Shown here in pieces: positions 5,477 to 63,683 of a DNA stretch of 64,000 nt (within the stretch, counting starts at the first letter, position 1; every line of letters begins with the position of its first letter). Source of the stretch: Bilabrum cf. latius (taxonomy: Eukaryota). Made by a program: the position numbers and the translations under genes. Under the pieces are notes generated by a model. The model saw only the letters and a list, made by a program, of their open reading frames with translations, did no database searches and was not told where the DNA came from. The stretch lies in NCBI GenBank assembly GCA_965178125.1, contig OZ237748.1, positions 1-64,000 of the forward strand, written 5' to 3'.

Positions 5477-8400
5477 ATGCGACTAGCATGGTCGTCACAC
5501 ATTGATGGCGGTGATAGCGTCTTCAAGGATGAGCAGACTGCCATGCGATGGTCTTCGTTAGAGAAACACGGGGATACCTTGGAGGTTGCGAGCGTGGTGG
5601 CCAAGGTGCATGCTCTGCGCCAGCAAAGTCCGCACGGTATTGGTGGCACGAACATTCGGGTCCTGGCAGCTGGGGCTTAGGCAGACGTGTCTAGATATAG
5701 CAAACACATTGAGTAGCAGTGCAAACGTGAGTACCAGTGGACTCTCGACAAAGCTGACAGGGGAGGCTGGTCCTCAGTGCTCCCGCACGCTGGAACCTTG
5801 TGGAGTCGGGCCGTGCATCAAGCGTCATCGAGCGGCCAGAGCGATCAATAGGCTAATCTACCAAAGCTTCATGTCCTGAGCGGTCTTGCAACTGATATTC
5901 ACGTTCAGCTTTTCGACGTTGGTGCAGCTACAGTGTCTGTCATGGTGCCGGGTGGTTTGCTTGCCTTCTGTCGAGACCTGATCGACGCCTTTGAACCTCC
6001 TATTAGGTCACTGCAACACACGCTTGATTCTGAAGGGGTTGTGGAACTAGCAAACGACGAGGGATTCTGGACCCAAGGATCACACATCGATGTCATTCGG
6101 AGTTGTTTGCTGTACGTGTTTGGCTCGGGCCTACGAGCTGCTGCCAAGAAGCTCGATTGGTAGGGACCCGAGCTAGTGATTCGTGTATAGCGCGGAGGTG
6201 GGCAAACTGGTGGATTCAAGTCATCTCTCACGCATGTTGCCAGTGGGCGAGGCCCGTAGACAAGCAGATTCTGGCCCAGTTCTCACACTCGGGACCGTAG
6301 TCCATCACGATTTCTGTCAAGTGCATTTCATTGGGTGCGATGCTTGGGGTATCCTGCTGTTGGTCAGACTGATGTGTCTGACTCCGACTCCGAGTCTGAC
6401 TCCAGGTCTGACTCCGACTCTGGTGTGAGTGAGGCCACAGAAGCAAGGCAAGCAGAATCCGTTGCAGTGCTTGGCCGGGACAACTGGCTCTAGGATCAGG
6501 ACGGCTTGCTGCGGCGCATGGTGCACGTTTCTCACTACAACCGATTCCTCATGATATTGCTCATGAGGCAGGTGGCAAGATGCTCAGTGTTTTATGTATA
6601 GCGAGTCGGCTGCAAGGCTTGCAAGCCGATGTCTCTCTTGCTGCAGGCTGCACAGCAACAGATGCGCAGAGCAGAGGCAGACATTGCTGCTCAGCAGTCA
6701 GCACGGGAGCGCGCTCGACAAGCTGCGATGGATGAAAGCGATGAAGAGGACGCCAGAGGACGGAGAGGTGAGTGGTTTGGTCCGACAGGAGATCGCAGTG
6801 ACGGGACATCAAGGACTCCCACAGGTCCAAGCTCTACAACAGCTGCCAGCAGCAAGCCAAAGACGCGTGTTGCCAGTCGATAGATGCAGACTGGCGTGGC
6901 GCAGGCGCGTGCATGGAGTGGATCTTAGTAGCGTCGAGGTATGCGAGATCTTGCGGCCATCATTCATCCGCATGGTCTGCTGACTCCCCAGCAAGACGCA
7001 GACATGGCCACGTACTGCAGTTTTGGCGTTGGCTTTGAATTGTGTGGCCAGCCCTCGCACACAGTAGCAATTCCCAACCCAGCTATGATAAAGTTCATGC
7101 ACAGCAGTCGTGATGAGCTTTTGCAAGAGGTTGTGCATGGTACGCCGCTCGAACGGGCTCGGTACGCCGTGGTGCGAGAGGCTACTCGTCCCTACGGGGC
7201 ACTGGCGTCGGTTGGCGAGTACGCTGGGACATTGCAAGGGAAGCTGCCGTCTTCTATCTCTTGGGGTGACATCGCTGCAATACACCAGCGTGTACTTGCC
7301 AAGGATACCGCGCATGCAACCAGTGACGACGGGGGTATATCGTCCTTCCTGCCATTTGGCTGCCTGCTGTCGTCGTAGTTGCACGTGTATCAGCCCGGAG
7401 CGTTCCGATCCCAATAGCCAAGTCCAGGGACGCACGATTCCGCGCATGATCTATTTCGGCGGCGTGTTCTCTCCAGGCTGCGCCACTCTGCTGAGACAGA
7501 CGCACAAAGAGCAGTTGCACCCGTTGCGCGAGGTAGAGATGTCGCAGCTGCTAGTGGAGCACTCGAGACACTGCCAATTCGCAGGCATATACAGTGTGGG
7601 CTTCAAACAGCATACGAACAAAGCATGCAAAGGCTGTCGAAAGGCCTGAAAGGGTCAACGCGAGGCGAATTCGACGTGCCCGCATCAACCATGGCCTTGA
7701 TGCTGGGCTGCGTGATGCTACCAGCTGAAGCAATCTACTAGCAGCAGCGCCCTGAGCACCGCGCCTAGACTACTGAAGAGTATTCTGAAGCTCCTTTCGC
7801 ACGCCATTTCATAGAAGTCGTGCATGACGATGTCATGGAGGACTACATACAGTTGGTTTACACTACTTTCAATCGAGCCCTCCAAAGGATCCAGAGGTTG
7901 CTTGTGGCATCTGTCTGCGGTTCTGACAGGATTCCGACATTCCAACGTTCTGCAATGTGGGCGCTAGCGGCATCAATGTCCCGGTGTTGCTTAGAAGGAT
8001 GGGTGGCTTTACGAACGGATGCATGGTCGCAGGTTGTTGCAGAACAAACTGCTGTGACATGGCTACCTGCAACAAGGCCTGTCCTGCGCAACCTTGGACC
8101 TGCTACAATTGAGTGGCAGGTCGTCCGCGACTGTCTGCAGTCATCTGGGTGCATGCCAGAGCAATCTGCTGTTGTTGCAGTCGCAGCAGCAATCGTCGAT
8201 CAAGTTGCCAGTGCCGTGCATTCCGTTCGCGCTGGGGACGGCCACGGCTCGCGCCTGAACTCGTGGACGGTTTTAGCCGTATGTGAAATCATAGTTACGT
8301 CTTGGAGCCTTTGCGCCGTAGCAGAGTGCAACGGAATGACATGGCAAGTGGCCAGGAGGTCCACGCAATATGCCCTCTGTGGGCTTGTGTCGGCGCACGA

Positions 8401-10252: not shown

Positions 10253-11594
10253 CAAATTGAACAAGAGTTTAGCTATGAGCAAGTACTATTCGACCTATGC
10301 TGAACAGTTTTCTAGAAATGGTCTGGAAACCAATATATGGGGCTGCCTCCAACACGTCGTCCTACATGTTGTACCAAGCCACATACTCCGTTCCGTAGAT
10401 TGGTTGTTGTACAAGTACTAAGACTTTATGTATCGAGTTGGGATGCGGTCCACAAAGCGTACTGATCCCAATCGTGCACGGACACATCCGGTGACCTGAC
10501 TTGCTGTGGTGACTGCCTGCCAGTGGGCTGATTCCGACGTCCGGGTTATCAATTCCGTCCTAGGATGCCGCCGAAATGTTTCATTGAAACCTACTTAGTA
10601 TCGTAGCCTGAGGTGCCGGTCAGTTGGTCAGCAAAGGAAGTCGCTTGTGCTGGCTGGCACTGAGGAGCAGTGGGGGCTTCAGCATGTCAACTGGAGGACA
10701 GCGATGCCTGCTGCGTAGCGTGTGGAATTAGACTAGATTGAATTGATGTATGAATATGATGCGCCAGCGTTATCAAATCGCGAAGCTGTGCACGGTTCTC
10801 GTATACTTCTGGCAGCTGGAGCACCTGCTAACGTGAGCAAATCTCAAATATTCCCCCAAGTAATGCATAAATCGAACTGATAGCTATGATCAAGTGCAAC
10901 GAAATAATAACTTGCTTGAAACAATGACGAGATTGACCGTATACACTGCTGAGTCTGGCTGCATCGTGAAGCTCAGACGCCGCGCCGCGGCATGCTGGTT
11001 CCGCTGTTCGCGACCGTTTGTGGATTCTGGCGCAACCACACCTCTCCGCGCCACAGACCGGCTCAACTGTCCTGGGGGCTGTTGGGATTCATGTTAATTA
11101 CCATTTACTGCCATACATCGTTGTGTGTTCAAGGTGGAATGCTGCTGTGGCTCTGCTTTGGTCTCGTCTCCTTGGGGCGCGCGATGGCGTTTGCAGACAG
11201 AACAGCTAGGTACCGCATAGCCCGAGTACAACAACCGCCAGGTATTTTGATTCTATTGTATTCATTCAGTTTGTTTGCTTTGTATTTGTGTTAGGTTCTG
11301 GCATCTGAATGGGAAGGTCGCTGGTCTGCTGACGTGCTTGTGCGTTGTCCAGTTTTCATGACAGCACTCAGGTATGCTGCCATGCATCGAGGGGCTATAA
11401 ATTTGTTTTCAATCGTTTCATTCTTTTCCTATGCATTGCAGGCAGCCTTTAGGACCCACCTGTGCTGATGAGACCCTCTCGCCGCTTCTGGCAAACATTG
11501 CATGGAACTGAGCAGATCCGTGCGGTGGGCGAGCAGAGAGTCAGACCGGCCAACCGTATAGGGATCCGTACGGATGGCGGTTGATTCTTTGGTC

Positions 11595-12346
11595 TCTTCA
11601 GGGCAGTCCCAATGATGCGTCCCGTCCCCAGCTCCTGGACTCGGCCTTCGGCGGCACGCCCGTCATCCTCTCACGCGGCTGCCCGCGCACCCTCCCAGCA
11701 CTTAGTCCTTGAGTCGGGCGGGAGCGCGGGTGCGTGCTTCGAGGCAGCGCGTGCCCCCGGGGCGAGAAGGAGCAGGCCAATGACGAGGAGCAGCATCCCG
11801 GGACAGGTGTCTCTGTAGATCCGATCGTCGAGTGTGGAGGTGTGTGTGGCAACACGATGAACCTGATGTCCCAGATCCGCAATGAGGTGGGGCAGGCAGT
11901 GCATGGGGAGCGCAAGCTCCTCGTGCACGCGCTTCATGCCGGCTCGCTGCCATCGGCCGCTGACTTGATCCCCGGGCTCGCGCACTTGTCGCGGCCCGTG
12001 CTGTCTCAGTCACGGACGGGCGAGCTGGATGGAGCACCTGCCCGACGGGGAGACAACCCCCTATTCTCGCGGGCGAAACACAGCAGGGCACACCTCCTTG
12101 GCAAACCCAATTTGCACGACGCGGTTTGGTCCAGACTCGCCGGGTGGGCGTCCATCCCGTGCAGCCCCCTGGGTGCTCGTCACCCACGGGCCGCACTGCC
12201 GAGGAGACCGCGGCCGAGATTCATTGCAAACCAAGCAGACACACATAATCATACACCAAATATGCATTGCCAATCACTTGCACCTCTTGCCGACTGCTTG
12301 CATCCTTGCAACTGGCCCAGATCCGCCTCAGTGCGATCTTGCGACC
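11595..12346. repeat. ~750-bp subtelomeric duplicated block, copy A (copy B at 22272-23029)
   Basis: Colinear and highly similar to 22272-23029. Both give the matching spurious or degenerate [18 protein letters not shown]...HCQSLA. Confidence 0.9.
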
Positions 12347-12446
12347 ACTTCGACACTGCGCGGCACCGCCGTCTTTGCGGAACATGTCAACTTCTGCGGA
12401 ACATGTCAACTTTCGCGGCGCCTTACCCTTCCCTGAGATGGTACTG

Positions 12447-13178
12447 TAACCCTAACCCTAACCCTAACCCTAACCCTAACCCTAACCCTAACCCTAACCC
12501 TAACCCTAACCCTAACCCTAACCCTAACCCTAACCCTAACCCTAACCCTAACCCTAACCCTAACCCTAACCCTAACCCTAACCCTAACCCTAACCCTAAC
12601 CCTAACCCTAACCCTAACCCTAACCCTAACCCTAACCCTAACCCTAACCCTAACCCTAACCCTAACCCTAACCCTAACCCTAACCCTAACCCTAACCCTA
12701 ACCCTAACCCTAACCCTAACCCTAACCCTAACCCTAACCCTAACCCTAACCCTAACCCTAACCCTAACCCTAACCCTAACCCTAACCCTAACCCTAACCC
12801 TAACCCTAACCCTAACCCTAACCCTAACCCTAACCCTAACCCTAACCCTAACCCTAACCCTAACCCTAACCCTAACCCTAACCCTAACCCTAACCCTAAC
12901 CCTAACCCTAACCCTAACCCTAACCCTAACCCTAACCCTAACCCTAACCCTAACCCTAACCCTAACCCTAACCCTAACCCTAACCCTAACCCTAACCCTA
13001 ACCCTAACCCTAACCCTAACCCTAACCCTAACCCTAACCCTAACCCTAACCCTAACCCTAACCCTAACCCTAACCCTAACCCTAACCCTAACCCTAACCC
13101 TAACCCTAACCCTAACCCTAACCCTAACCCTAACCCTAACCCTAACCCTAACCCTACCCTAACCCTAACCCTAACCCT
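12447..13178. repeat. Internal telomeric tract T2, (CCCTAA)n, about 120 units
   Basis: Hexamer array in the same orientation as T1. Confidence 0.98.
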
Positions 13179-13184
13179 TCAGGC

Positions 13185-14651
13185 GTGACGACGTCTCCAC
13201 CAAAGCAGGTCCTGCTGATTTCCCTCGTGGGCCTCCACCAAGACTGCGGGCTGCTCTGCGGGTCTTCGGAGCACTACAACGGGACCAAGAAGGCGGGCAT
13301 CACGGCCTGCGTGGATGCCATGCTGGCGATGGATGAGTCCAAGCTGCCGTCTGGGGTGCTCACGGCGCTGGACCGCCGCCTGTACCCGGCCGCATCAACC
13401 AGCTCCGGCTCGCCAGGCTTCCGCAAGATGAAGCAGCTGCTCATGGGCCTGCGCGACAGCGGCTACTCGGTGACCAAGCACCCCTGGTTTACGGCAGGCA
13501 TGGACAGCCTACGGAAGACCTACAAGGACACGGTCAAATTCATCTGCGACTATGGAGCTGGGACAGCTTCTGTGCGTGCTCGTGGCGGCATGGAGGCTGT
13601 GTTCCAAGTCGTGTTTGACGGGCCGGTCGTGGACTCTGCCGGAGCAGCAGCAGGAGATCGTGGCGGCACTTCACGTGCTGCTGTTCTCGCACCAAGTGGG
13701 CCATCCCGTGCTCGGAAGGGTAAGCGGGCTACTATGGACGACGACGATGACGACGAGGATGGCGCGGACTACAGTGCCTTCACGGCCCGCATGAAACAGG
13801 GACAGAAACAGGGACAGCATGATCCGGACGACTCAGAGTTCAGCGTGTCCAGCGACTCATAGACCGATCGGCTGAACAACGAGCTACTCGGCCCCAAGCG
13901 AGCGGCGGAGGCCGAGAGAAAGGCCAAGGCAAAGGCCAAGCTCAGGGCCAGGACCAAGGCCGCGGGCAAGTCGAAGGGCAAGTCGAAGGGCAAGTCGAAG
14001 GGCAAGGGTGCCCGATCGGCAGAGCCGAAGAGCAGGCATGCTGAAGCCGCGCCTCCGGCTAAGATGCAGCCCAAGCGATTGCCCGTCCTCCAGCCGGGCT
14101 ATGGCGGAGGAGCTCGCCGCGCCAATGACCAGGAGAAGAGGGGAGCAAGTGGCGCAAGGAGTGGAGCAGCAGCATCACTGCCTCGACAGGACTCTGAAGA
14201 AGATGAAGAGGAGATCGGTGGTCGGTACCACGCAGACGCAGCCAGAGAGCAGGACGAGGATGAAGCTCCGATAGGGCTCGTGCAGCAGGACGAGGAGGAT
14301 CAGGACGAGCTGGATGAGGAGGAAGAGAACGAGGCCCAGAACCAGCAAGACGACTCTGAGAACGACGGTGGAGTGGAGGACAACGGCTTCACCGACTAGC
14401 AGCGGCACCTGGTGGACCGCATCCTCGCTGCCTGCGATGACATCGCGCTGGGCGTCAGCCGGACTCTCGACGACATGGTCGAGGACGTGGAGGAAACAAT
14501 TCAAGAGAGGGACCACGGAATTGGCACGTTCGCTGACCTGATGACGGCCCTCGAGAAGACGGCGGAAGGAGATCTCAATGCGGAAGCCGTGGACGCTGTG
14601 GAGGCGCTCCTGGCAGCTGTCGGTGCGGAACCCTCCTCCGATGACGAGTGA
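13185..14651 (+). CDS. ~488-codon ORF with basic then acidic low-complexity segments; apparently 5'-truncated at telomere tract T2 (TAG read as Gln)
   Basis: Pieces 13185-13862, 14064-14399 and 14412-14651 share a frame, are joined by 2 TAG and end in TGA. GC3-rich codon usage begins immediately after the tract. Confidence 0.75.
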
Positions 14652-14891: not shown

Positions 14892-17502
14892 CATATCGGC
14901 GCCGCGCGAGTAAAACGGAATCTGAGGTACAAATGGATCATGCTATGCCCCTGCCCCTTCCAAATGCAGTTTGAATCATCTTCATATCTGCCGTGGTTGC
15001 CGAGATCTCAATTCCGAATTTTGGCCTTTGAAAATCTTCAATTGACCATATCGGCGCCGCGCGAGTAAAACGGAATCTGAGGTACAAATGGATCATGCTA
15101 TGCCCCTGCCCCTTCCAAATGCAGTTTGAATCATCTTCATATCTGCCGTGGTTGCCGAGATCTCAATTCCGAATTTTGGCCTTTGAAAATCTTCAATTGA
15201 CCATATCGGCGCCGCGCGAGTAAAACGGAATCTGAGGTACAAATGGATCATGCTATGCCCCTGCCCCTTCCAAATGCAGTTTGAATCATCTTCATATCTG
15301 CCGTGGTTGCCGAGATCTCAATTCCGAATTTTGGCCTTTGAAAATCTTCAATTGACCATATCGGCGCCGCGCGAGTAAAACGGAATCTGAGGTACAAATG
15401 GATCATGCTATGCCCCTGCCCCTTCCAAATGCAGTTTGAATCATCTTCATATCTGCCGTGGTTGCCGAGATCTCAATTCCGAATTTTGGCCTTTGAAAAT
15501 CTTCAATTGACCATATCGGCGCCGCGCGAGTAAAACGGAATCTGAGGTACAAATGGATCATGCTATGCCCCTGCCCCTTCCAAATGCAGTTTGAATCATC
15601 TTCATATCTGCCGTGGTTGCCGAGATCTCAATTCCGAATTTTGGCCTTTGAAAATCTTCAATTGACCATATCGGCGCCGCGCGAGTAAAACGGAATCTGA
15701 GGTACAAATGGATCATGCTATGCCCCTGCCCCTTCCAAATGCAGTTTGAATCATCTTCATATCTGCCGTGGTTGCCGAGATCTCAATTCCGAATTTTGGC
15801 CTTTGAAAATCTTCAATTGACCATATCGGCGCCGCGCGAGTAAAACGGAATCTGAGGTACAAATGGATCATGCTATGCCCCTGCCCCTTCCAAATGCAGT
15901 TTGAATCATCTTCATATCTGCCGTGGTTGCCGAGATCTCAATTCCGAATTTTGGCCTTTGAAAATCTTCAATTGACCATATCGGCGCCGCGCGAGTAAAA
16001 CGGAATCTGAGGTACAAATGGATCATGCTATGCCCCTGCCCCTTCCAAATGCAGTTTGAATCATCTTCATATCTGCCGTGGTTGCCGAGATCTCAATTCC
16101 GAATTTTGGCCTTTGAAAATCTTCAATTGACCATATCGGCGCCGCGCGAGTAAAACGGAATCTGAGGTACAAATGGATCATGCTATGCCCCTGCCCCTTC
16201 CAAATGCAGTTTGAATCATCTTCATATCTGCCGTGGTTGCCGAGATCTCAATTCCGAATTTTGGCCTTTGAAAATCTTCAATTGACCATATCGGCGCCGC
16301 GCGAGTAAAACGGAATCTGAGGTACAAATGGATCATGCTATGCCCCTGCCCCTTCCAAATGCAGTTTGAATCATCTTCATATCTGCCGTGGTTGCCGAGA
16401 TCTCAATTCCGAATTTTGGCCTTTGAAAATCTTCAATTGACCATATCGGCGCCGCGCGAGTAAAACGGAATCTGAGGTACAAATGGATCATGCTATGCCC
16501 CTGCCCCTTCCAAATGCAGTTTGAATCATCTTCATATCTGCCGTGGTTGCCGAGATCTCAATTCCGAATTTTGGCCTTTGAAAATCTTCAATTGACCATA
16601 TCGGCGCCGCGCGAGTAAAACGGAATCTGAGGTACAAATGGATCATGCTATGCCCCTGCCCCTTCCAAATGCAGTTTGAATCATCTTCATATCTGCCGTG
16701 GTTGCCGAGATCTCAATTCCGAATTTTGGCCTTTGAAAATCTTCAATTGACCATATCGGCGCCGCGCGAGTAAAACGGAATCTGAGGTACAAATGGATCA
16801 TGCTATGCCCCTGCCCCTTCCAAATGCAGTTTGAATCATCTTCATATCTGCCGTGGTTGCCGAGATCTCAATTCCGAATTTTGGCCTTTGAAAATCTTCA
16901 ATTGACCATATCGGCGCCGCGCGAGTAAAACGGAATCTGAGGTACAAATGGATCATGCTATGCCCCTGCCCCTTCCAAATGCAGTTTGAATCATCTTCAT
17001 ATCTGCCGTGGTTGCCGAGATCTCAATTCCGAATTTTGGCCTTTGAAAATCTTCAATTGACCATATCGGCGCCGCGCGAGTAAAACGGAATCTGAGGTAC
17101 AAATGGATCATGCTATGCCCCTGCCCCTTCCAAATGCAGTTTGAATCATCTTCATATCTGCCGTGGTTGCCGAGATCTCAATTCCGAATTTTGGCCTTTG
17201 AAAATCTTCAATTGACCATATCGGCGCCGCGCGAGTAAAACGGAATCTGAGGTACAAATGGATCATGCTATGCCCCTGCCCCTTCCAAATGCAGTTTGAA
17301 TCATCTTCATATCTGCCGTGGTTGCCGAGATCTCAATTCCGAATTTTGGCCTTTGAAAATCTTCAATTGACCATATCGGCGCCGCGCGAGTAAAACGGAA
17401 TCTGAGGTACAAATGGATCATGCTATGCCCCTGCCCCTTCCAAATGCAGTTTGAATCATCTTCATATCTGCCGTGGTTGCCGAGATCTCAATTCCAAATT
17501 TT
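14892..17502. repeat. 155-bp satellite, family A, about 17 essentially identical copies
   Basis: CATATCGGCGCCGCGCGAG recurs every 155 bp from 14892 to 17372. Confidence 0.98.
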
Positions 17503-17565
17503 AATGCAAAAAATGAAGATGAAATTTTTTTTTCCCCGACCCTGTCCCTGACTTTAAATTAGATA

Positions 17566-17754
17566 CCCTAACCCTAACCCTAACCCTAACCCTAACCCTA
17601 ACCCTAACCCTAACCCTAACCCTAACCCTAACCCTAACCCTAACCCTAACCCTAACCCTAACCCTAACCCTAACCCTAACCCTAACCCTAACCCTAACCC
17701 TAACCCTAACCCTAACCCTAACCCTAACCCTAACCCTAACCCTAACCCTAACCC
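17566..17754. repeat. Internal telomeric tract T3, about 31 units
   Basis: (CCCTAA)n array. Confidence 0.98.
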
Positions 17755-18183: not shown

Positions 18184-18247
18184 TTCGACAAATATTGAAG
18201 ATGAAAATATTTTTTCCCCGACCCTGTCCCTGACTTTATATTAGATA

Positions 18248-19253
18248 CCCTAACCCTAACCCTAACCCTAACCCTAACCCTAACCCTAACCCTAACCCTA
18301 ACCCTAACCCTAACCCTAACCCTAACCCTAACCCTAACCCTAACCCTAACCCTAACCCTAACCCTAACCCTAACCCTAACCCTAACCCTAACCCTAACCC
18401 TAACCCTAACCCTAACCCTAACCCTAACCCTAACCCTAACCCTAACCCTAACCCTAACCCTAACCCTAACCCTAACCCTAACCCTAACCCTAACCCTAAC
18501 CCTAACCCTAACCCTAACCCTAACCCTAACCCTAACCCTAACCCTAACCCTAACCCTAACCCTAACCCTAACCCTAACCCTAACCCTAACCCTAACCCTA
18601 ACCCTAACCCTAACCCTAACCCTAACCCTAACCCTAACCCTAACCCTAACCCTAACCCTAACCCTAACCCTAACCCTAACCCTAACCCTAACCCTAACCC
18701 TAACCCTAACCCTAACCCTAACCCTAACCCTAACCCTAACCCTAACCCTAACCCTAACCCTAACCCTAACCCTAACCCTAACCCTAACCCTAACCCTAAC
18801 CCTAACCCTAACCCTAACCCTAACCCTAACCCTAACCCTAACCCTAACCCTAACCCTAACCCTAACCCTAACCCTAACCCTAACCCTAACCCTAACCCTA
18901 ACCCTAACCCTAACCCTAACCCTAACCCTAACCCTAACCCTAACCCTAACCCTAACCCTAACCCTAACCCTAACCCTAACCCTAACCCTAACCCTAACCC
19001 TAACCCTAACCCTAACCCTAACCCTAACCCTAACCCTAACCCTAACCCTAACCCTAACCCTAACCCTAACCCTAACCCCTAACCCTAACCCTAACCCTAA
19101 CCCTAACCCTAACCCTAACCCTAACCCTAACCCTAACCCTAACCCTAACCCTAACCCTAACCCTAACCCTAACCCTAACCCTAACCCTAACCCTAACCCT
19201 AACCCTAACCCTAACCCTAACCCTAACCCTAACCCTAACCCTAACCCTAACCC
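18248..19253. repeat. Internal telomeric tract T4, about 168 units
   Basis: (CCCTAA)n array with a degenerate end, CCTTACCTAAAAAAACCCTAG. Confidence 0.98.
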
Positions 19254-19298
19254 TTACCTAAAAAAACCCTAGCACATGCTTTGAATGGCCAACTCTTT

Positions 19299-20805: not shown

Positions 20806-20942
20806 AGAGTTATGACCCGATTCGGAGTTGTAACCTAGGTTTCAAAGCATGCCCAATCAGAATATATTGATCTTGTTCCCTGAGCCGCGCTTGCGTAAAA
20901 GCCGAAAATGGCCAACCCTAAGTATAAGTTGACCCCCTGATA

Positions 20943-22241: not shown

Positions 22242-22271
22242 ACGTTGTGCAGTTTAGGATTTCCTGTGGTA

Positions 22272-37790: not shown

Positions 37791-37804
37791 GGCCGAAGCT
37801 GCAC

Positions 37805-41438: not shown

Positions 41439-41842
41439 TCAAGGGGCTTGGGAGGGTGGCATCCGGAATCCGGATGAGAGGATTCAGCTAGAACCGTACA
41501 GATGTGATGGATCAGATGTCAGCTCCAAACTCAACTTTCGTTGTACGCCTCCTGCACTCAGTGTATGTTACGTTGTGCTGCAGGCGTCTCTTTTTCTGCG
41601 CTGGTTGGTGCGCGTGCTCCCAACAAGGTGCCACGATTCCAGCGCCACATCTCCACGGTCCGATCAAGCCGGAACTCTCCGCGCGCTCCGTTTGAAACAG
41701 GCTCAGTCCTCGACTCGGAAGGATACTCTAAATCGTACAGGTTAAAAGTTTGTTATGAGCTCAGCACTTTGTATTTGTCAGTCTTTCCAAACATTAGAAT
41801 CTCAACGGGGGATCCCTGTCGAGATTATTCCAGAAATATACC

Positions 41843-48598: not shown

Positions 48599-48728
48599 GA
48601 GGTGTTTGACTTATTTCTATCCAGTCGACGTCGACCTGCAACTCCGAATCTTTTGAGCAGATCCTAAATCCATCTGCTTGTCAGTCATCTCTCTTGAATG
48701 CGGAAGTGGAGCCTTGGTACTACAAAGT

Positions 48729-50837
48729 ATGGCTCGAGCTCGCCACTATGGTCTGGGGGAGATTTCTGAGGAGTTTGCAAGCAAGGGGTGTATTCTCAGT
48801 GTTCCTGTTGTGCCAAGAGACGACGCTGCACGTCTTCTGTAGGCGGCCCATGTAGGAGGGGCCGGTAGCTTGCCCAGTGGAAATGACCGTTTCAAGCAGC
48901 ACCTCGTGGTTCCATGCTTTGCGCGCTCGGTGCGAGCTCTTGCGCTGATACAAGCTACCCGAGCCTGCGTTGCGCCCAGCGGCGAGCCGCTGCTAGCTTG
49001 GAGCTCAGATTTTAACATTAAGCAACCGAAATCCGGTGGGTTTTACAGCTTGCACTAGGACGGGAAGTACGCAGGCCTGCATCCGGCTGAGCAGGTGCTC
49101 ACGGCGTGGCTCGCTCTCTCTGACGTGTCCAGACAGGAGGCCGGCCCGCTCGTGTATTGCCCCGGGTCTCACAAGCTGGGCATGCTGGAGCACGAGGAGA
49201 CAATCGATACCAAGCGCAAGCTCGGGTACAGCGAGACTCCAGTCCCGGCGGAATCTGCAGCCGGGCCGACAAGTGGCGCGTCCGCTCCGGCCCCATCAGA
49301 CCGAGCGGCTGGCACATCAGCCAACCTGAACCTGCTGAGCAAAGGACAGACCATCGTGCCAAGAACGGAGGAGGAAGCAGCCGCCCTCGCGTCCAATGAT
49401 GTGCATTGCACGCTGGCACCGGGGGAGGCCTGCCTGCACTCGTTTCTGCTCGCCCACAGGAGCGGGCCCAACCTGCTGGACTATCCCAGGGTGGGGCTGG
49501 CGGTGAGGTATATGGGCGGGGGCGTGATGCGGCACACGGGGGGCACTTGCAAGAAGAGGTACATGGGCGGGGGCGTGATGCGGCACACGGGGGGCACTTG
49601 CAAGAAGAGGTACATGGGCGGGGGCGTGATGCGGCACACGGGGGGCACTTGCAAGAAGAGGTACATGGGCGGGGGCGTGATGCGGCACACGGGGGGCCCT
49701 TGCAAGAAGACAGCAGAGGCAAGTAAAGAATACCCAGAGGAGCATAGCGAGGGTGAGGGTGAGGGTGATGGTCACGTTGCCAGTACATGCCCAGAAGCAG
49801 CCACTCTAGTGTGGGACAGCGGGAGGGTGGTGGGCGATCCCATCTTGCATGCGCTGGCAGTAGCAGCTGGGAGCATACCCACAGGTGGCAGCGGTGCCTT
49901 GGGTGGGGCTGCTTGCGATAGCGATGGAAGTCGAGGCGCAGCAGCAGCAGGAGCAGGGAGCTTAAGTTGTGGTGGGGCTGACTCATCCTGTGAGGACACT
50001 GCCGGCTTTGCCTCGGCCTTGGCATCTTACAGTGCATTGCACCCTAGGCAGAGGGAGGCCAGGCAGCTCGCGGTGCTGGGGAGGAGGATACTGAGGGCTG
50101 TCCGTGATGGCGGTGTCACGAGTGATGGAGATGATGCGATGAGTGAGACTGATGCAGAAGCCGGTGTGGATTTAGATGAAGGCAGGATGCACCCAGCGGA
50201 TGAGGCCAGGGTGCTGGGCGCTTTGTAGGCCCTGCAGTCTCGCCTGCACTTTTTGTTGGAGCCCTGTCCGTGGGAGGTATCAGGGGAGGTGGATCGTGAC
50301 ATCATCTTCATCGCGGGGGATGCTGGCGCGGGTGAGTCTAGCAAGCGAGATGAAACTACGTCTGAAGTGGCGGAGGCAGGTGGAGATGGACGAGATGATG
50401 GGCAAGGGGGCACAGAGGCGGAGGCAGGTGGAGATGGACGAGATGATGGGCAAGGGGGCACAGAGGCGGAGGCAGGTGGAGATGGACGAGATGATGGGCA
50501 AGGGGGCACAGAGGCGGAGGCAGGTGGAGATGGACGAGATGATGGGCAAGGGGGCACAGAGGCGGAGGCAGGTGGAGATGGACGAGATGATGGGCAAGGG
50601 GGCACAGAGGCGGAGGCAGGTGGAGATGGACGAGATGATGGGCAAGGGGGCACAGAGGCGGAGGCAGGTGGAGATGGACGAGATGATGGGCAAGGGGGCA
50701 CAGAGGCGGAGACATAGGCGAAAGTAGAGGCGGGCAGTCGTGTGCGGGCTGACCTAGAGCAGGCGAGGACCCGTGTGAGAGAGGCAACGCTACGGCTAGA
50801 GAACATGAATTACTTCCGGTTTGAGGGCGGTCGATGA
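48729..50837 (+). CDS. PhyH-family (phytanoyl-CoA dioxygenase-like) Fe(II)/2-oxoglutarate dioxygenase, 702 aa with repetitive C-terminal part (TAG read as Gln)
   Basis: ATG at 48729. Motifs: FNIKQPK..YSLH*DG (HQD), LTAWLALSD, GPLVYCPGSH, LAPGEACLH...HRSGPN...R. There are 4 TAG and a TGA at 50835. Confidence 0.88.
49506..49709. repeat. In-frame 51-bp coding tandem repeat x4 (RYMGGGVMRHTGGTCKK)
   Basis: Visible in both the DNA and the ORF track. Confidence 0.95.
50370..50711. repeat. In-frame 48-bp coding tandem repeat x7 (AEAGGDGRDDGQGGTE)
   Basis: Identical units start at 50370, 50418 and so on. Confidence 0.95.
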
Positions 50838-51002
50838 ATCCACCGGGATGGTGACGCACCGCCGGTGGCTCCGATCGAAACCGGAACCACCGTCAGGACC
50901 AGTAGATCCTTACCGCGCGACCTCAATCTCAGAGACCTTGCTATCCCCACCAACATCGCACGCCACTTGTAGTTTCACGACCGCCGAACAAAAGCACCCC
51001 CC

Positions 51003-52643
51003 TCACTCGTCCTGGGACTCGTGTATATAAGTGAGCGCCTTCTCCAAGCTGGGCAACGGGTGTCCCTCAGGGGGGGCGTCAGAAGACGTCCACCATAGGC
51101 CATGGAATGTAGCCTGCTGCCTCAGGGATACGCCTTGTTCTACCTGCAACACCCTCGCCGTGGGCCACAGGTAGGACGTGTCGATGCTCCACAGGTACGC
51201 CCCGCTGTCCATGTCTACGAGAGCAAGATCTCCCGTGCGGTCGCACTCCTCCCCCGTGATGACGAGTGCGCACTTCTGGGCCTTGCCCCCGGTTTCCGAC
51301 TTCCAGTCTCCGCGATATCCCGACGCCACTAGGTTGCAGTCGTCCTGTAGAGTCAGACGGGTCGAGAAGGCGCCCTAGCGTTTCCCGACCGACTGCCCCA
51401 TGGGCAGCATCTGATCGTCCCACAGTGTGTACCACACGCGGGTAGATCGCTTAGCAAGCGCCTTGGGATCGCAGCGACGTGGAGCCATCCCTTCGATGGC
51501 CGCCTGCATCGCCGCCGTCTTGCGACCATTGCCGAAGGTCGTGTCGTCGTCAGGACTATCCAGGTCCGCAGACCCTGCAGACCACACGATGCCACCTCCC
51601 TTCTGGGACAGGACGGCGTCCCCGTCCCCCTGCAGACGAAGGGTGTCTGCACCCGGGTCCATCAGCGATGCAGGCACCCGCCAGATGTACTGCCCGGAGG
51701 CGCTGTCCACGATGGCCAGGTCGCCCTTGGTGTCGCACCCGTCCCCTGTGATGACGAGTGCGCACTTCCCCTCGGTACCCTTTCCCTTCGTGTTGGTCGC
51801 AAACCGCGCCTTGCCCCCTCGGTACACCATCAGGTTGCAGTCTCCCTGCATGCGCAGCTCGACCCCCTCCCCCTCGCCCGCCCTCAAGGCGGCCCCGGCT
51901 TGCAGCACCTGCCCCGGAGACAGCACATCGCCGTCGGTCACTTGGTGGTATGACGATTGCAAGGCCCCTGCATCGCACTGCAGGTTGTGCACATCCTCCC
52001 GCACTTGCTGATCAAAGTGGAACTTACCGATCCCCTGTGCGTGGCCCCCGGTCTCGGTGCTCCACAGCAGGTGCCCCCCTTCCTGAAGGAGAGCGGCATC
52101 GCCGTCCCTCTGGACCAAAAATGTGTCCACTTCTGGTGTGAAGATAGAGGATTGCACCCGCCAGATGTACCTGCCCGTGTCCGTGTCGATGATGGTCAGG
52201 TCTCCCTGGGTGCTGCACGATGCATCCGTCAAGACCAGCGCGCAATTGGCCTGCTTCTAGTCTCTACCAAAGCCGAAAATTTCCGACTTGTCCTTGCCAG
52301 AGATTACCAACTTGCAGTTATCCTGCACATACACCTTCGTCGAATTCTTGGACAAGGCGTTAACCAGCGGAGCCTTGGCGGAGTGTAGAATCTCGCCTTT
52401 CCGGAGCCTGTCGCCCTCTGCCGGCTTCCTCGCTGCCAAGGCGCTGACATCGCAGGAGTATGTGTAAACGTTGTCATAGTTGGGGTGGAGCGCATTGCTA
52501 TGGTGCGTGCTGCTGGCGCTGCCCGAGGCCGACGACATAGAGCCAGTGCTGCGAAGGTGCTGCTGGCCTGTTGCTCGTCGCCCGTGCACAGTGACCACCG
52601 AACAGGCGGCTAAAGCCAGCAAAATGGAAACGATGGATTGCAT
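51003..52643 (-). CDS. 546-aa secreted protein with about 3 bulb-type (GNA-like) lectin domains (TAG read as Gln)
   Basis: Signal peptide, then QxDxNxVxY-like motifs VQDNCKLVI, MQGDCNLMVY, LQDDCNLVA and LQGDGDAVL. Three pieces share a frame, are joined by 2 TAG and end in TGA. Confidence 0.82.
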
Positions 52644-52828
52644 CTCTACAAATGTCAGGTTGATGAGCCAGTTGGATCCCTTCGCACTGATGTAGAAGGC
52701 CCCAGGGAAGTGGGGGTGCCAGCGAAGACTCCGATGTCACACGGTGCCACAGACCCCCGCGAGGGGGGTGTACGGCCCCTGGCAGTGGCGCCGCAGCGGA
52801 ACTTTGGGCTGTGGCGGAGAGCGCCCCC

Positions 52829-53037
52829 GCCCGAGCCAAACTTTCGGCTCGGGCAAAAGGCAGCTTTGCCCAAGCTGAATAATTTTATATTTAAACTGGA
52901 TTTGCGGCGATTTCAGCGACCGCGCCCGAGCGGAATGTTAGGCTCGGGCGCCGAGCACCTGCGCCCGAGCCGGCCGATGGGCTCGGGCAGGGGCGGCCTC
53001 CGCCGGAGCCTAGGGTTTTCTTTTTTTCGGCTCGGGC
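52829..53037. other. Cluster of three hairpins sharing the stem GCCCGAGC/GCTCGGGC, plus a lone half-site
   Basis: Hairpins at 52829-52854, 52923-52950 and 52963-52988; half-site at 53029-53037. Confidence 0.7.
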
Positions 53038-53894: not shown

Positions 53895-54368
53895 GCGAGT
53901 GAGACTGATGCAGAAGCCGGTATGGATTAAGACGAAGGCAGGATGCACCCAGCGGACGAGGGCAGGGTGCTGGGCGCTTTGTAGGCCCTGTAGTCTCGCC
54001 TGCACTTTTTGTTAGAGCCCTGCCCGTGGGAGGTATCAGCGGAGGTGGATCGTGACATCATCTTCATCGCGGGGGTTGCTGGACTGGGTGAGTCTAGCAA
54101 GCGGGATGAAACTACGGCTGAAGCAGCGGAGGCAGGTGGAGATGGACGAGATGATCGGCAAGGGGGCACAGAGGCGGAGGCAGAGGCGAAGGTAGAGGCG
54201 GGCAGTCGTGTGCAGGCTGGCCTAGAGCAGGCGAGGACCCGTGTGAGAGGGGCAACGATGTAGCTAGAGAACATGAATTACTTCGGGTTTGAGGACGGTC
54301 GGTGAATCCACCGGGATGATGACGCACCGCCGGTGGCTCCGATCGATACCGGAACCCCGCCAGGACCA
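53895..54368 (+). pseudogene. Duplicate of the 3' end of the PhyH gene (~50140-50900) carrying only one 48-bp unit
   Basis: Colinear similarity (GAGTGAGACTGATGCAGAAGCCGGT...LEPCPWEVS.EVDRDIIFIAG...ENMNYF). It has small indels and no PhyH catalytic part. Confidence 0.8.
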
Positions 54369-54452: not shown

Positions 54453-55518
54453 AGTAAGCGCCTACTATAGCAGCATTTGGCAACGACATGATGCCGCCGA
54501 TCCTCACCTTCCTTACCCGACAACGCCCGGCATCGCTTCGCAGTGGCAAGTGCAGGGGGCGAATCAATTCAATTGTTGAAGACGATAGTACTAGGGGATC
54601 TAGCATCCGGCAAGTCGTGCTTTTTCCAGAGAGTGCTGGTGAGGTTACACACCAATGCGTCCAGGCCGCTCTTTGCACTGCAAACTAGCACTGCTGGCAG
54701 TCTAGATCTACCGGGATTGCTGCTCAGCGACAAATTCATTGCTCGCCTGCTCGATTTAAGTTGCAGGGGTGCGATTTTCCGAAGCAGAGTCCACCGACGA
54801 TAGGGATAGACTGCGGCCGCGGGACTGTCCAAGTCGACGGTCAAGCTCTCAATGTGGCCTTGTGGGATACAAATGGTAAGATTTAAGAAGAGCTTCCGTG
54901 CATGCGGGCAATCAAAGCCGCATGGTATCTGTGGAGCTTCGCATAGCTCCTACATGTCTCAAAGATGCGGACGAGTAGATCTACTGGGCCTTCAAGAAGC
55001 TTACGCAGGCCTGGAGGGATCATCGAGGATTCGCAAGGCGTGAGAGACTCAGCAGTATTTGCACGCCGTATTGTATGATCTGCGTATGTTCCGATTAGTA
55101 TGCATCAGGTTGTAATGCTTTGTTTTGAGCCAGCAGACACATGCGCGGCTCCCGCTGCGTCTTCATTGTCTTCGACCTGGCCTCGAGAGATTCATTCAGG
55201 ACGGTCCGATACTTCGTTGAAGAAGCCAGGGAGACTCTGGGAGACACCATCCCGATCGCCATGATTGGTACCAAGTCGGACCTCGTGGATAGGCGGGAGG
55301 TGCCAAGGGAAGAAGCCGAACGGAAAGCCAAAGAGCTCGGGGTTCTATACTACGAGGTGAGCTCGAAGACGGGGGAGGGGGTTGATGAGGCGGTGGAGGG
55401 GCTGCTTGAAGAGGCGCTGACAGACGAGGAGCGGGCAAAGGAGCGTCATTCCACAGAGACATCGCCGGACCTAGGAGACTAGGACAAGGCGCCATCATCG
55501 GGGTGCATCACAAGCTGA
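54453..55518 (+). CDS. Divergent Rab-like small GTPase, copy 1 (intron-containing)
   Basis: Exons encode KTIVLGDLASGKS (G1), PTIGID...LWDTN (G2/G3), IGTKSDL (G4) and EVSSKTG (G5). Reading through TAG 55480 gives a C-terminal CITS followed by TGA. The middle exon boundaries are not fully resolved. Confidence 0.8.
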
Positions 55519-56035
55519 TGGGTGGATTCGGGGGAGCAGCATTGCATCTACCATGCCATGTGAACATCAGGTGAAACAAAATAGCCAGATGTACTTCACT
55601 CTGTCAAGCAGGCAGCAAGGGCCACACGGGCGGCGAGGTGATGATCAATTGAACCAGAGGGCACATAAGATCGACAGTGCCCGAGCTGCAGACCTGGACG
55701 GCAGCAGCTATGCCGATTGGGTGGCATGTAGTGAGTGGGAAGGAGGGCATTCATTGCCTGAGAATTGGCCCCGGGGCTCAGACAAAACCGGAACTGCCAG
55801 CCATACGTTCGGCACTCAGGGGAATGCCCCTGAATGTAAGCTAGTTTTGCACTTCGAGATGGCGAGAACTTTTAAGTGAAACAGTAGTCATTTATTTGAG
55901 TAGATACCTTGATCATACCATGCGTCCTGTCGAAAAGTATCAGGAAAGTGAGCTTCAGCCTGGAAAGTCTTCAGCCAGACTAGCAAATTTCCATGAGAAT
56001 GCAGTTTTCTAGCACTCAATGAATCTGTTCCGCAG

Positions 56036-57495
56036 TGGTATGCATGCGAAAATGCAGGAAACATTGCTCGATTAAAGCAATGATGATGGGCAGTGATTCA
56101 TGCGGGCTCACGAGCTTCAGAAACAGAGTAGTTGTGAGACGCAGACCATATGCCGCGTTCGAGCAGGTACTGTACGGGTACGACATCAAGGTAGTGATTT
56201 TAATCTGCCGGTTATTTCAATATGCAGCGGACTCGATCTCCGACGGACACATCGTCCACCGTTGGAGTAGATTTCGAGCTTGCAGACACCTGTATACATG
56301 GTCAAAGAGTGGAATTGCAGCTCTGGGACACCAACACATAGAGTGAGCCGCGAATACGCAGTGATACCGCAACGATAAATGACGGCGACTGTCTGCTGAC
56401 AAGAGCACATAACGACAGCGTATCATGGCCCGCTTATTAATTTTCGCAGCCAGGTACAGGAGTATTTGTCGTTGGTGAGTACCCGAAGTGATTGTCAGAT
56501 CATTGAATTGGGCCCATAATGGTTGGTGAGGCCAGCAAGGTCTCTGAGATTGAGGTCACTCGGTGGGCGCAGGACCCGCTCGAGGAGCAGGCTCAGATGC
56601 GACGGAGCGATGCGGAGGAGTGCGAGAGAGAGAGAGAGAGAGAGAGAGGGCTGCATCTAGGGGGGGGAGGGTAGAGCAAAGGGAGGGGGGGACGACGGTT
56701 CACCGGAACGGGGGAGGAAATGGTGGAGGAAAAGATGATCGGTGGGGTCATTGGGTTGATGAGGCGGATAGGAAGGGGGAGGCACAGGCCGGGCAGGTGT
56801 GGGTTGGGCATGTGTGACGAGTGACTCGGATCAGGGGGATCGGATCACCGACCACATGCGGATGTGGAAGTTGAGAGGTCACAATTAGACTCGAGCGGCA
56901 ATCAAGCCGCGTGCTATTCGGGCGCTGAGGGGCAGCGTTCGCCAGTTTTCTTTTTTGGTAACTTTGAGGATGGGCTCTCGGAGGAAACCAACTGCAAAAT
57001 GTCAATTGAATTTGTAAATGCTTGGATTATGCCGTTCGCAGGCATTTACGGGGCTCCCGCTGCGTATTTATTTTGTTCAGTCTGACCGATAGTAGGTCCT
57101 TCAAAGAAGTGGACTCTCTCGTTGCGGATGCCAGGGAGGCGTTGGGAGGCACTATCCCAATCGCCATGATTTGTACCAAAGATGACCTGGTCGACGCTCG
57201 GCAGGTGTCACAGGAAGACGCCGAGCGGAAAGCTGAGGAGCTGGGCGTGCCATACTACGAGGTTAGCTCTAAAACTGGGAAGGGCGTTGATGAGGCGGTG
57301 CAAGGGCTGGTGCATGCTGCGCTGACAGACACGGAGCGGGCTAAGGAGCAGCGGGAGCTAGAGCGGGAGCGGGAGCGTGTTCTGGCCATGGCAAAAGGGC
57401 GGGAATGGGCCAAGGGGCAAGCAAAGGGGCAGCCAGGGCGATCTGCAGGAAGAGGTGAAAGCACAGGAACCACGTCTTGGAGCACAGTGAGTTGA
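56036..57495 (+). CDS. Divergent Rab-like small GTPase, copy 2 (degenerate P-loop, no C-terminal Cys)
   Basis: Exons encode IKAMMMGSDSCGLTS, STVGVDF...LQLWDTNT*, then HLRGSRCVFILF...CTKDDL...EVSSKTG, ending WSTVS-TGA. Confidence 0.72.
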
Positions 57496-57980
57496 GTAGT
57501 GGCATACATAGATCTGCTGACTGTGCACGCATTGATGGGTAATCGAACCAGGCTACCCATCAATCGTGCACATTGGTTCCGTCCGGAGCATCGCTCCACC
57601 GCGACGAATAGGCCTCCATCAGTCGGGGTGGGCTGCAGGCAACAAAAAGGTAGTTGCGTCAAGTAGATCCGGTCCATCATGTATCTTCTCAACGATCCTT
57701 TTGAATACTGATCCTTTTTTTGGATGTCATCCTTCCCGGGATTCTTCGTAAGCCGGAACCCTTTTCATCACGGTGGGCCCGTAGGTGGCGGAGGTCTTTA
57801 TCACATTTTCATAGCCTGCGAAAAACTACGCTGATATACATTGACGTAGTGATATGTGCTAGGCAACGAAACCTCAGGAGAGTGAGAACTAGCAAGTCCA
57901 GACAAGTCTAGCAAATTGGGCAACAGTTCTTGCCTGTATACACCCGCCACACTTTGATCTATCAAATCGCTACCCCGCAG

Positions 57981-58945
57981 TGGCAACTATGGAACAAGAA
58001 CTCACAACGCCGCCACAAATAATCAAAGCGGTAGTGCTTGGTAGCTATGTGTGTGGCAACACGTGCTTCTGTCGAACTGCATGTGTTAGTTGCTAACCCC
58101 AGGCTGCACCACAGTCCCTGCTCCACATGCGCTACACTTATCTCCAGTTGCCTATTTTGGCTTCATACGTCGAATCATCCCAGGGAAAGCCGTTTCATCG
58201 TGATACCAGTCCGACAATAGGAGCCTTTGAAGAGGTAGTTGACATTCGCGTGGGTGGTCAAACCGTTGATTTACGGCTATTCGACATATCAACCCATCGT
58301 GAGCTCGAAGCTATTGCTACAAAAATTAAATCAAAGTTCTTCGATTTGGGCCTTTGGCCGCGAACATACGCCACTTTGCTGAACGAATTAAATCCTTGCA
58401 GTGAGATACGAGAGTATTCGCGCCTTGTGAGGAAATGATTTGCAACAGATGCACTAATTTTATTTCAATTTATTGGTAATTGTGTATTCTCATATTCTTG
58501 CATCATCAGTTCCGTTCCAAATTGCAAAGCGCTGCGTCACGCCCGCTGCGTGTTCGCTATGTTCAGTCTCATTGATATGACGACATTCGAACTGGTGGAT
58601 GTACATATCGGCGATGCCAGGGAGACTCTGGGAGACACCATCCCGATCGCCATACTCGGGACCAAAGCCGACCTGATGGACGAGAGAGAGGTGACACGGG
58701 AAGAAGCCGAACGGAAAGCCAAAGAGCTCGGAGTTCTATACTACGAGGTGGGCTCGAAGACGGGGGAGGGGGTTGATGAGGCGGTGGAGGGGCTGCTTGA
58801 AGAGGCGCTGACTGACGAGGAGCGGACTAAGGAGCAGCGAGACCTAGAACGATACGAAGACGACGCACATGGTAGGGAGAAGGAGGCGGGCAGCAAGGTG
58901 CCACCTGGCGGAGTGGGATCTTCATCATGGTGCGTCGTGAGCTAA
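57981..58945 (+). CDS. Divergent Rab-like small GTPase, copy 3 (degenerate G1/G3)
   Basis: Exons encode IIKAVVLGSYVCGNT, PTIGAF...LRLFDIS, then LGTKADL...EVGSKTG, ending in the CaaX-like CVVS followed by TAA. Confidence 0.75.
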
Positions 58946-59039
58946 GGGGCCCGAACCGTCTTCTTGGCGCTCACACTAGTCTAGGCACACATACCCATTT
59001 ACATTCGATTTTATTACAAAACTGCGGATACTTATCTAT

Positions 59040-62000: not shown

Positions 62001-63683
62001 CCCCGCCATCAGCATAGCCAAGGCCTCCCTCCGCAGTGCATTCGGGAGGTAGCCTGGGTCATCCCACACCGGCTTGAATTCGTCCTCCTACCCAGCTGCA
62101 TTTGGGCCCATGCCACTTCCACCTCCAACACCAACGCCGTCCTCTTCTTCTTCTTCTTCTTCCTCTTCCTGCTTCGCCCCGATGAAGGACAGCAGGGAGT
62201 CCACCACGCCACCTCCTATCTCTTTGCTGGAACTAGAGTCACCTCCCGACTCATCGGCGGCGGCACCGGCACTGGCACTGCTCGTGCGATGCCCGTCCAG
62301 AGCGCCCGCAGCGACCTGCAAAGGGGCGCTCAATCCACCGGTGGACTCCCCCGCCCCTTTGGCCACGTCCTCCGCCGTCATACCCTCGGGCAGGCAGCCC
62401 ATCGCCGCAACCGCAGCCCCCTGGCCCCCGTGCCGCAGCTCGTCACGCAGGAACGGCCCGCTGCCCAGCGTGCCAGGGAGACTGGCCGAAGAGCTCGATG
62501 TCAGCGATGCTGATGCTAATGCTAATGATGGCAACGCACCCGCAGATCCACGGTCACCTTTGGTCGATCGTGTCTCGCCAGCTGGCTCCTCCCCTTCCCT
62601 CTCCTCTTCCACCTCCTCATGCTGCCAGTCGCTGGCCAATCTGGCCCTCCCCTGCCCCTTGGCGTCCAGAAACCTCCTCCGCAGCACGCCAAGCATCTGC
62701 ACCGGTGCCCTGACCGCATCGGGATGTGCCAGCATGTGAGCCAGGGGTGGCAAAGGAGTGTCCGCCCCTGCTCCCATCACCATCCCTGTCCCTTCCCCTT
62801 CCCCTGCCCCCGCCTCCTCCCCAAGGAGAGCCTCCAAACTCACGCCCTCCCCAAGCTGGCATAGCCCAGCATCCGCCGCGGCCCGCTCCGCCGCCAGCTG
62901 CAGTGCCATGGCCACAGTCCCACACCGTGCCATGCCCGCGGGAGAATCCGCCTGGCATGCCATACCCACTCCAATGGACCATTCAGGCGATCGACTGGCC
63001 GCCCATGCGCCCCGCCACGGGCCTAGATCCACTGGGATATCCAAGGATGCGGACGAGGACGAGGACGAGGACGAGGATGGGGCGCCTGCAGCACCACCAG
63101 CACTTGGGGCCCCCCGAGCTATCACATCTCCTGGATCGGTGTGACGAGCAATATCTTGGACCCCGGCGGCTGCATCGATCGCTCGCGAGTCCTGCTCTTC
63201 TCGCATGGCCCGCACATCGACAGGCACCCCCAGCCACATGCGACCGGCCCGAGGCCCATGCGAGCGCAGCCAGATGCCCGCCGCGGCTTCCTCGGCGAGA
63301 GGGGCTGCGGCCTAGGCCCACAGCCGCAGCAAGCCCGATGAAGCGGCTGAATTTACGGACTTGTGACCGGCCTTGCGGCTGCCTGCTATTCCAATTTGGA
63401 CCTGCTTGCTCATGGCTGTCTGCAGCTTCGCGAGACCTCTAGCGAAACGTCGCTCTCGCTCCTTTCGTCGAGATGGGCTCCAGAACTCGACCGGCCTCCG
63501 TGGAATGGTGTAGGTTACAGAAATAGGAATCATTGGTAGCTTATGGTCAGTCTTGTCGTGCTACACGTCTCCGACTGGATTCGGCTCGCTGCATTCCGCT
63601 TGGCTGCCGTCCTCTGTTCGTAACGCGTCCAAGTCCAGCGAGTTGATGGCGAACTACATCCATGAAGAAACAGTGGACGACAT
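59040..63683 (-). CDS. 1547-aa Gly/Ala-rich protein of unknown function (TAG read as Gln)
   Basis: Pieces 63312, 62088, 61185, 60225 and 59346 share a frame. The frame is open from ATG 63683 to TAA at 59040-59042, with 9 TAG and no internal TAA/TGA. Confidence 0.8.

Follow-up and report, generated by a model that had tools for sequence, protein, structure and literature searches.

In the available text of PMC11687900 and PMC5304391, UAA and UAG are described as nearly always reassigned together, with few nuclear lineages separating them. Reassignment of UAG alone to glutamine is reported there for Protocruzia tuzeti, Hartmannula sinica and Trochilia petrani (PMC11687900) and for the fornicate Iotanema spirale (PMC5304391). 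Here we consider a 64,000-nucleotide stretch of a GenBank record for Bilabrum cf. latius (GCA_965178125.1, contig OZ237748.1, positions 1 to 64,000, forward strand; hereafter the window), in which long genes on both strands are interrupted by in-frame TAG. Our data suggest, with a probability of roughly 0.9, that UAG has been reassigned from stop to glutamine in the eukaryotic part of this window while UGA (mainly) and UAA still end translation, which corresponds to the code of NCBI table 15. A sequence-only reading of the same DNA had arrived at this code and had named Iotanema and some phyllopharyngeans among UAG-only carriers; its list was incomplete beside the species reported in PMC11687900, which include Protocruzia tuzeti.

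Under the standard code, everything beyond 5.4 kb in the window breaks up into open reading frames (ORFs) of 250–1050 amino acids (aa). When TAG is read through, these merge into eight long ORFs on both strands (Table 1), which together comprise 12,114 codons including terminators and contain 66 in-frame TAGs (5.4 per 1000), no internal TAA and no internal TGA. Every one of the eight has at least two TAGs, five can be assigned a domain or a protein family, and the 4102-aa gene forms a 12.3-kb uninterrupted ORF. The TAGs are scattered from end to end of the genes, in several of them even within the final 5%, and make up 11.9% of glutamine codons in the window (66/556). Counting the two remaining frames of these strands (24,228 codon positions) gives 165 TAG, 77 TAA and 491 TGA, so the open frames are not a by-product of base composition; non-coding sequence as long as the eight ORFs would be expected to contain about 38 TAA and 245 TGA. 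TAG thus behaves as a sense codon, frequent inside conserved genes, as had been proposed. The hand counts of the sequence-only reading (20, 2, 17, 4, 8, 4, 2 and 9 TAGs) were reproduced exactly by computation, and its claim of no internal TAA or TGA over more than 12,000 codons held.

The identity of the residue at TAG is clearest at two motif sites. In the searches with the PhyH, 1591-aa and 4102-aa proteins TAG was entered as X, so those matches were not drawn towards glutamine. Codon 127 of the PhyH-family dioxygenase, a TAG, occupies the central position of the H-x-D metal motif (HQD), and 11 of the 12 homologues covering it have Q there, the remaining one having T. In the 862-aa secreted-looking protein, TAG 502 lies in the TWQxG motif that is conserved across its family (399 homologues in a library of 1.84 billion proteins, 60 of them at E<=1e-30), and Q occupies this position in 13 of the 14 closest rows; over 127 rows Q remains the commonest residue (35), followed by G (33) and E (20). 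The only row covering TAG 29 of the same protein also has Q. At this codon a contig variant, 40309 A>G on the plus strand, changes TAG to CAG; it is the sole form in one public run (X6) and a minority form in another (X1).

Database proteins from close relatives, 71–94% identical to those of the window, have Q at four of the six TAG sites where a residue is present, and a seventh site is a gap. These glutamines lie opposite TAG 2047 and 2308 of the 4102-aa membrane protein (in P0017, 94% identical), TAG 3683 of the same protein (P0018, 83%) and TAG 1239 of the 1591-aa ORF (P0016, 71%). The gap, one residue long, is in P0016 beside a Q at TAG 1394. Two further relatives of the 1591-aa ORF encoded on one contig, P0014 and P0015 (84–86% identical), end one residue before TAG 1014 and TAG 1208, as a standard-code gene caller would have them do if the relative has TAG there; judging from these protein ends, the relative most likely carries standard-code stops at the same two places.

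A more distant relative allows this comparison to be calibrated. With P0002 as query (a PhyH relative that shares 50% identity with the window protein), a scan of metagenome contigs recovered L002, a 6.8-kb contig of about 52% GC with the same divergent ABC/PhyH gene pair as the window; an earlier scan, for which a piece of the 4102-aa gene without TAG was used, found no relative. The ABC orthologue on L002 (144–5096, minus strand, 1650 aa) has 22 in-frame TAGs, lacks TAA and has TGA only as its terminator, while the PhyH orthologue, cut off by the contig end, has two in-frame TAGs. The syntenic proteins are about 46–48% identical to those of the window and the 24 TAGs are mostly at different positions; at PhyH codon 127, where the window has TAG, L002 has the standard glutamine codon CAA. 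Twenty-six TAG-versus-residue pairs could be read between window and L002 (Q 11, E 4, A 3, G 2, R 2, and V, D, L and K once each), and one further site is TAG in both. Among the pairs in well-conserved surroundings (15 or more matches in the 20 flanking residues), the partner is Q in four and E in one. In the same alignments standard glutamine codons face Q in 39% of cases, TAG in 42%, and codons for any other amino acid in at most 6%, and a log-likelihood based on the observed substitution table ranks Gln first, with Glu 11.5 units lower and all others lower by 22 or more. Taken with the motif sites, these figures bear out the earlier assignment of TAG to glutamine. The sequences indicate that at least two well-separated species share the code, which would make it a property of a lineage and not of one strain. 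Both ABC transporters have the same unusual build: a signal or membrane start, a Cys-rich ectodomain with CPxGxFCP, a membrane helix, a long low-complexity linker, an ABC_tran domain and an ABC-2 membrane domain.

TAA and TGA, by contrast with TAG, appear to have kept their function as stops, as the sequence-only reading had stated. Seven of the long ORFs end in TGA and one in TAA. Adding the last exons of three small-GTPase genes and a partial PhyH copy (53897–54367, about 93% identical to the 3' part of the PhyH gene at 50141–50900; open from 53931 to 54302 with three TAGs and a final TGA) gives 12 ORF ends, of which 10 are TGA and two TAA, so that TAA is represented as a terminator by two ORFs. 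If TAA also encoded glutamine, one would expect from the CAG:CAA ratio about 19 TAA among the 66 internal TAR (TAA or TAG) codons of the window and about 10 among the 22 of the L002 ABC gene; there are none in either (P = 7e-8 and P = 2e-6, respectively), and none among all 24 internal TAR codons of L002. A code in which both UAA and UAG encode glutamine (UAR to Gln, NCBI table 6 type) was rejected on this absence of sense TAA (0/66 and 0/24).

Several observations weigh against the reassignment of UAG to glutamine. More than half of the window/L002 TAG pairs (15 of 26) are not Q, and two of the close-relative sites have another residue: M in P0018 at TAG 3702 of the 4102-aa protein, and E in P0024 (91% identical to the 862-aa protein) at TAG 369, a codon that faces K or R in 71 of 114 homologue rows and Q in four. 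Codon 55 of PhyH, in a poorly aligned N-terminal stretch, never faces Q: all 11 homologues have one of W, Y, V, L and I there, and L002 has A, and codon 71 of the 862-aa protein, beside an insertion, faces F in one poorly aligned row. Distant cadherin and TIG-repeat matches to the 4102-aa protein (24–29% identical) have no Q in 36 residue pairs, although these pairs are between non-orthologous repeats, and alignments of the internal repeats (cadherin, TIG, lectin) are likewise uninformative for TAG columns. The partial PhyH copy gives a mixed signal, differing from the gene by one CAG>TAG but also by TAG>GAG and CGG>TAG. The ABC ORF of the window has a TAG two codons upstream of its TGA that could be a terminal TAG, and the ORF definition used reads through any such codon. 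A tRNA scan found none in the window or in L001–L003, the window contains no eRF1 gene, and none of the public runs that contain the stretch is on record as RNA, in which TAG could be seen in mRNA. The TAG sites out of line with glutamine lie at variable positions. Q commonly exchanges with E, K and R, and none of these sites points to one other residue.

Of the alternatives, a dual meaning, in which TAG is glutamine or stop according to where it stands in the mRNA (compare Condylostoma and karyorelict ciliates), is the strongest, though we consider it improbable. In its favor are the TAG near the end of the ABC ORF and the end of the L002 orthologue, which lies no more than one residue from that TAG; however, all 12 ORF ends have TGA or TAA, no ORF needs TAG as its end, and TAGs run through whole genes into the last 5% of several. 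In Iotanema, every one of 81 candidate terminal UAGs was judged to be sense, according to the available text of PMC5304391. That TAG encodes another amino acid, with Glu as the next best candidate, is very unlikely. Glu is the second commonest partner in the L002 pairs (4/26), stands at codon 369 in the 91% relative, and appears as TAG>GAG in the partial PhyH copy, but Q and E commonly substitute for each other, the likelihood of Glu is worse by 11.5 log units, and the motif sites are Q in 11/12 and 13/14 rows. About as slight is the chance that the TAGs are not translated as such, whether through assembly or sequencing error, C>T damage of CAG, or editing of the RNA to CAG. TAG and CAG are one transition apart, and our comparison is of DNA. 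Damage would, however, be equally expected to turn CAA into TAA and CGA into TGA, neither of which occurs in 12,114 codons, and the 24 TAGs of a distant relative are mostly not those of the window; nuclear U>C editing at such a scale is not known. Error is further contradicted by contigs from four public runs of four studies, aligned to positions 33000–52999 (X1 is possibly the source sample; X5 and X6 come from other studies, and X6 is probably DNA). Among the contigs listed, those free of differences cover 13 of the 25 TAGs in this interval in X1, 11 in X5 and 9 in X6, with X5 and X6 jointly covering 15 and both TAGs of the lectin-like ORF lying within such X5 contigs, so that contigs of three studies agree letter for letter over kilobases spanning TAGs.

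A large DNA virus or endogenous viral element using code 15 is a still fainter prospect. Small GTPases, which the window encodes, occur in giant viruses. Alternative codes also improve gene calling in some giant-virus metagenome bins, according to the available part of PMC13524828. Against a viral origin stand the CCCTAA telomere arrays, small-GTPase genes that are split and show a GTGAG donor and a CAG acceptor, and named homologues from choanoflagellates and diplonemids; Pfam scans of the eight ORFs found no viral hallmark family, although no dedicated viral search was made. Least credible of all are decaying pseudogenes, or TAGs lying in very short in-frame introns, which nothing beyond the presence of standard-code stops favors. 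Decay is contradicted by the lack of TAA, TGA and frameshifts, as the sequence-only reading had argued, and by proteins conserved at 71–94% identity in relatives and at about 46–48% in the syntenic orthologue. Tiny in-frame introns, which it had raised alongside error as possible sources of the TAGs, fare no better: at the sites that relatives cover, their proteins mostly continue with a residue at TAG, with a single-residue gap at one of seven close-relative sites. Among 15 joints listed of 28 in the contig alignments of 33000–52999, the shortest skips 75 bases and the others at least 133, taken over the interval as a whole. Reassignment of UAG to glutamine therefore remains our preferred reading.

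Under this reassignment, UAG would be decoded by a tRNA-Gln(CUA) whose anticodon differs from that of tRNA-Gln(CUG) by a single base. It would pair with UAG but not read UAA because of a C:A mismatch, and it would presumably act alongside an eRF1 whose recognition of UAG is lost or weakened. The same tRNA-Gln(CUA)/eRF1 mechanism is the one proposed for Iotanema in the available text of PMC5304391.

Table 1. Telomere-type arrays and genes of the window; gene lengths and TAG counts are given with TAG read through.
Feature	Positions	Strand	Content	In-frame TAG	End
(CCCTAA)n array	3441-4403		one of five, all in the same orientation, 32-168 units		
ORF, 1591 aa	5477-10252	+	no Pfam family	20	TGA
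(CCCTAA)n array	12447-13178		next to the 488-aa ORF, then a 155-bp x16.8 repeat (14892-17502)		
ORF, 488 aa, acidic, low-complexity	13185-14651	+	no Pfam family	2	TGA
(CCCTAA)n array	17565-17754		same orientation as the other four		
(CCCTAA)n array	18247-19258		same orientation as the other four		
(CCCTAA)n array	20942-21646		same orientation as the other four		
Membrane protein, 4102 aa	24585-36893	+	Pfam Ephrin_rec_like Cys-rich, cadherin and IPT/TIG repeats, C-terminal membrane region	17	TGA
Secreted-looking protein, 862 aa	37805-40393	-	widespread eukaryotic family, no Pfam model	4	TGA
ABC transporter, 2251 aa	41843-48598	-	Cys-rich N-terminus, ABC_tran, ABC-2 membrane domain (Pfam)	8	TGA
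PhyH-family dioxygenase, 719 aa, repeat-rich tail	48678-50837	+	Pfam PhyH, E = 3.4e-17	4	TGA
Protein with three lectin-like repeats, 546 aa	51003-52643	-	weak B_lectin match below the Pfam cut-off	2	TGA
Three tandem small-GTPase (Ras/Rab-like) paralogues	54540-58945	+	split over reading frames, introns inferred, gene models partial		
Gly/Ala-rich ORF, 1547 aa	59040-63683	-	no Pfam family	9	TAA (sole long ORF so ending)

The record from which the window was taken is chimeric at 3440/3441. All 3440 bases of positions 1–3440 match the chromosome of a Croceimicrobium sp. metagenome-assembled genome (L004) at 100% identity, and the join is placed here because that chromosome runs on beyond the point where the window turns to CCCTAA repeats. 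This bacterial part encodes a YCII protein, an ECF sigma factor with DUF6596 and an SRPBCC/polyketide-cyclase-like protein. The four arrays other than that at 12447 are each followed by one tandem repeat (326 bp x2.4, 155 bp x2.8, 339 bp x4.5 and 53 bp x11). The five arrays could be several chromosome ends that were mis-joined, or genuine interstitial telomere arrays. For 4.4–21.6 kb, the four arrays after the first pose the same question of chimeric joins; they interrupt 5477–63683, and this span may not be a continuous piece of chromosome. TAG-bearing genes lie in three of the inter-array pieces. The TAG signal is found on either side of the array joins, and the sequence at 33–53 kb is backed by independent contigs. 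A 770-bp segment is duplicated at 92% identity just upstream of one array (11587–12351) and just downstream of another (22264–23034). An Rfam scan of the window gave no match.

The three small-GTPase genes contain two TAGs, as had been noted: one in the last exon or tail of copy 1 (55480) and one in copy 2 at about 56.3 kb, each within a partial gene model. The TAG of copy 2 adjoins a WDTN motif and falls at the position that the catalytic Gln of DxxGQ occupies in Ras-family proteins. In copy 1 a GTGAG donor and a CAG acceptor can be read between exons 1 and 2, and the frame after WDTNG runs K, I, TAA, where a GTAAG probably serves as splice donor. The P-loop of copy 3 is degenerate (GSYVCGNT), and its catalytic-Gln position is occupied by H. 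The last exons of copies 1–3 end in TGA, TGA and TAA, respectively, and the C-termini are CAAX-like (CITS, STVS and CVVS). In the lectin-like gene at 51003–52643, many near-identical contigs align (21 at position 51216 in X1) and the summed depth is 10–100 times that of its neighbors in three runs, which suggests that this gene belongs to a multi-copy family.

The identity of the host is less readily drawn from these data. GC content is 52–70% from 6 kb to 64 kb of the window, genes in the eukaryotic part are tightly spaced, and the window contains no phylogenetic marker gene. Five of 30 homologues looked up have names: Didymoeca and Stephanoeca (choanoflagellates), Sulcionema and Flectonema (diplonemids), and a fifth whose name is a generic JGI one. 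At 37–43% identity these are too distant and patchy for lineage placement, and the stramenopile-like affinity proposed by the sequence-only reading is a guess. Named members of the 862-aa family belong to acanthoecid choanoflagellates and diplonemids. A protein-atlas search with a standard-code piece of the ABC transporter gave no taxonomic lead, its matches all being generic ABC-2 membrane clusters of mixed taxa. On balance, the window probably represents a known code in a new carrier lineage. More specifically, we lean slightly towards an independent and undescribed origin of UAG-only reassignment to Gln. The carriers would be free-living, aerobic, GC-rich eukaryotes that have TTAGGG-type telomeres and belong to neither ciliates nor metamonads, their lineage comprising at least two deeply diverged species (about 46–48% protein identity) that recur in the environmental data of several studies. 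A literature search, covering main texts mostly from outside subscription journals, found no report of UAG=Gln in a GC-rich eukaryote that is neither ciliate nor fornicate; what PMC13524828 and the Carbon-A preprint say of TAG as glutamine has no bearing on this case.

Another carrier, probably independent of those known, would be informative as to how the coupling of UAG and UAA is broken. A GC-rich, mainly UGA-terminating genome is the opposite of the AT-rich, UAA-terminating ciliates and would test whether low GC or codon rarity is needed for such a change. Since the code itself is known (table 15), any novelty would lie in the carrier: a GC-rich, TGA-terminating eukaryote with TTAGGG-type telomeres and at least two divergent species. 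If the lineage is indeed independent, it would be the first such clade with chromosome-scale DNA, and its tRNA and eRF1 genes could be recovered from existing assemblies. There is also a practical consequence, as standard gene callers cut genes at each TAG and the proteins of such organisms are therefore fragmented in public catalogues; the database proteins P0001, P0014 and P0015 are fragments that start or end at TAG codons. Contigs of such an organism can moreover be binned with bacteria.

Codes of the table 6 type, in which UAR encodes Gln, occur in many ciliates, hexamitin diplomonads, some ulvophytes, oxymonads and an aphelid. They resemble the code found here in turning a stop into Gln, presumably through mutated tRNA-Gln anticodons, but differ in that TAA is reassigned too. 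Closer is Iotanema spirale, where UAG=Gln with UAA and UGA as stops was likewise inferred from in-frame UAG at conserved Gln positions (PMC5304391, available text). According to the same text UAA is the main terminator of Iotanema, whereas 10 of the 12 ORF ends here are TGA. Iotanema is an anaerobic flagellate, while the window encodes a PhyH-family dioxygenase with a need for oxygen that is inferred from its family, a comparison made by description only. TAG=Gln with TAA and TGA as stops is also found in crAss-like and Lak phages (PMC9523058, available text); these are phages of gut bacteria, whereas the DNA here is eukaryotic and chromosomal, with telomere repeats, introns and eukaryote-type proteins. 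Among the ciliate carriers, the Phyllopharyngea can be compared on several features given in the available text of PMC11687900. TAG is a minority glutamine codon in both, at 18.5–31.8% in Phyllopharyngea versus 11.9% here, but phyllopharyngean telomeres are CCCCAAA, in contrast to the five CCCTAA arrays of the window, GC content is 27.4–53.6% versus 52–70%, and the main stop is UAA (91.9% in H. sinica) in place of TGA. These telomere, GC and stop-usage features argue, although indirectly, against a phyllopharyngean ciliate as the carrier, and in the same indirect way they agree with the earlier suggestion of a carrier that is not a ciliate.

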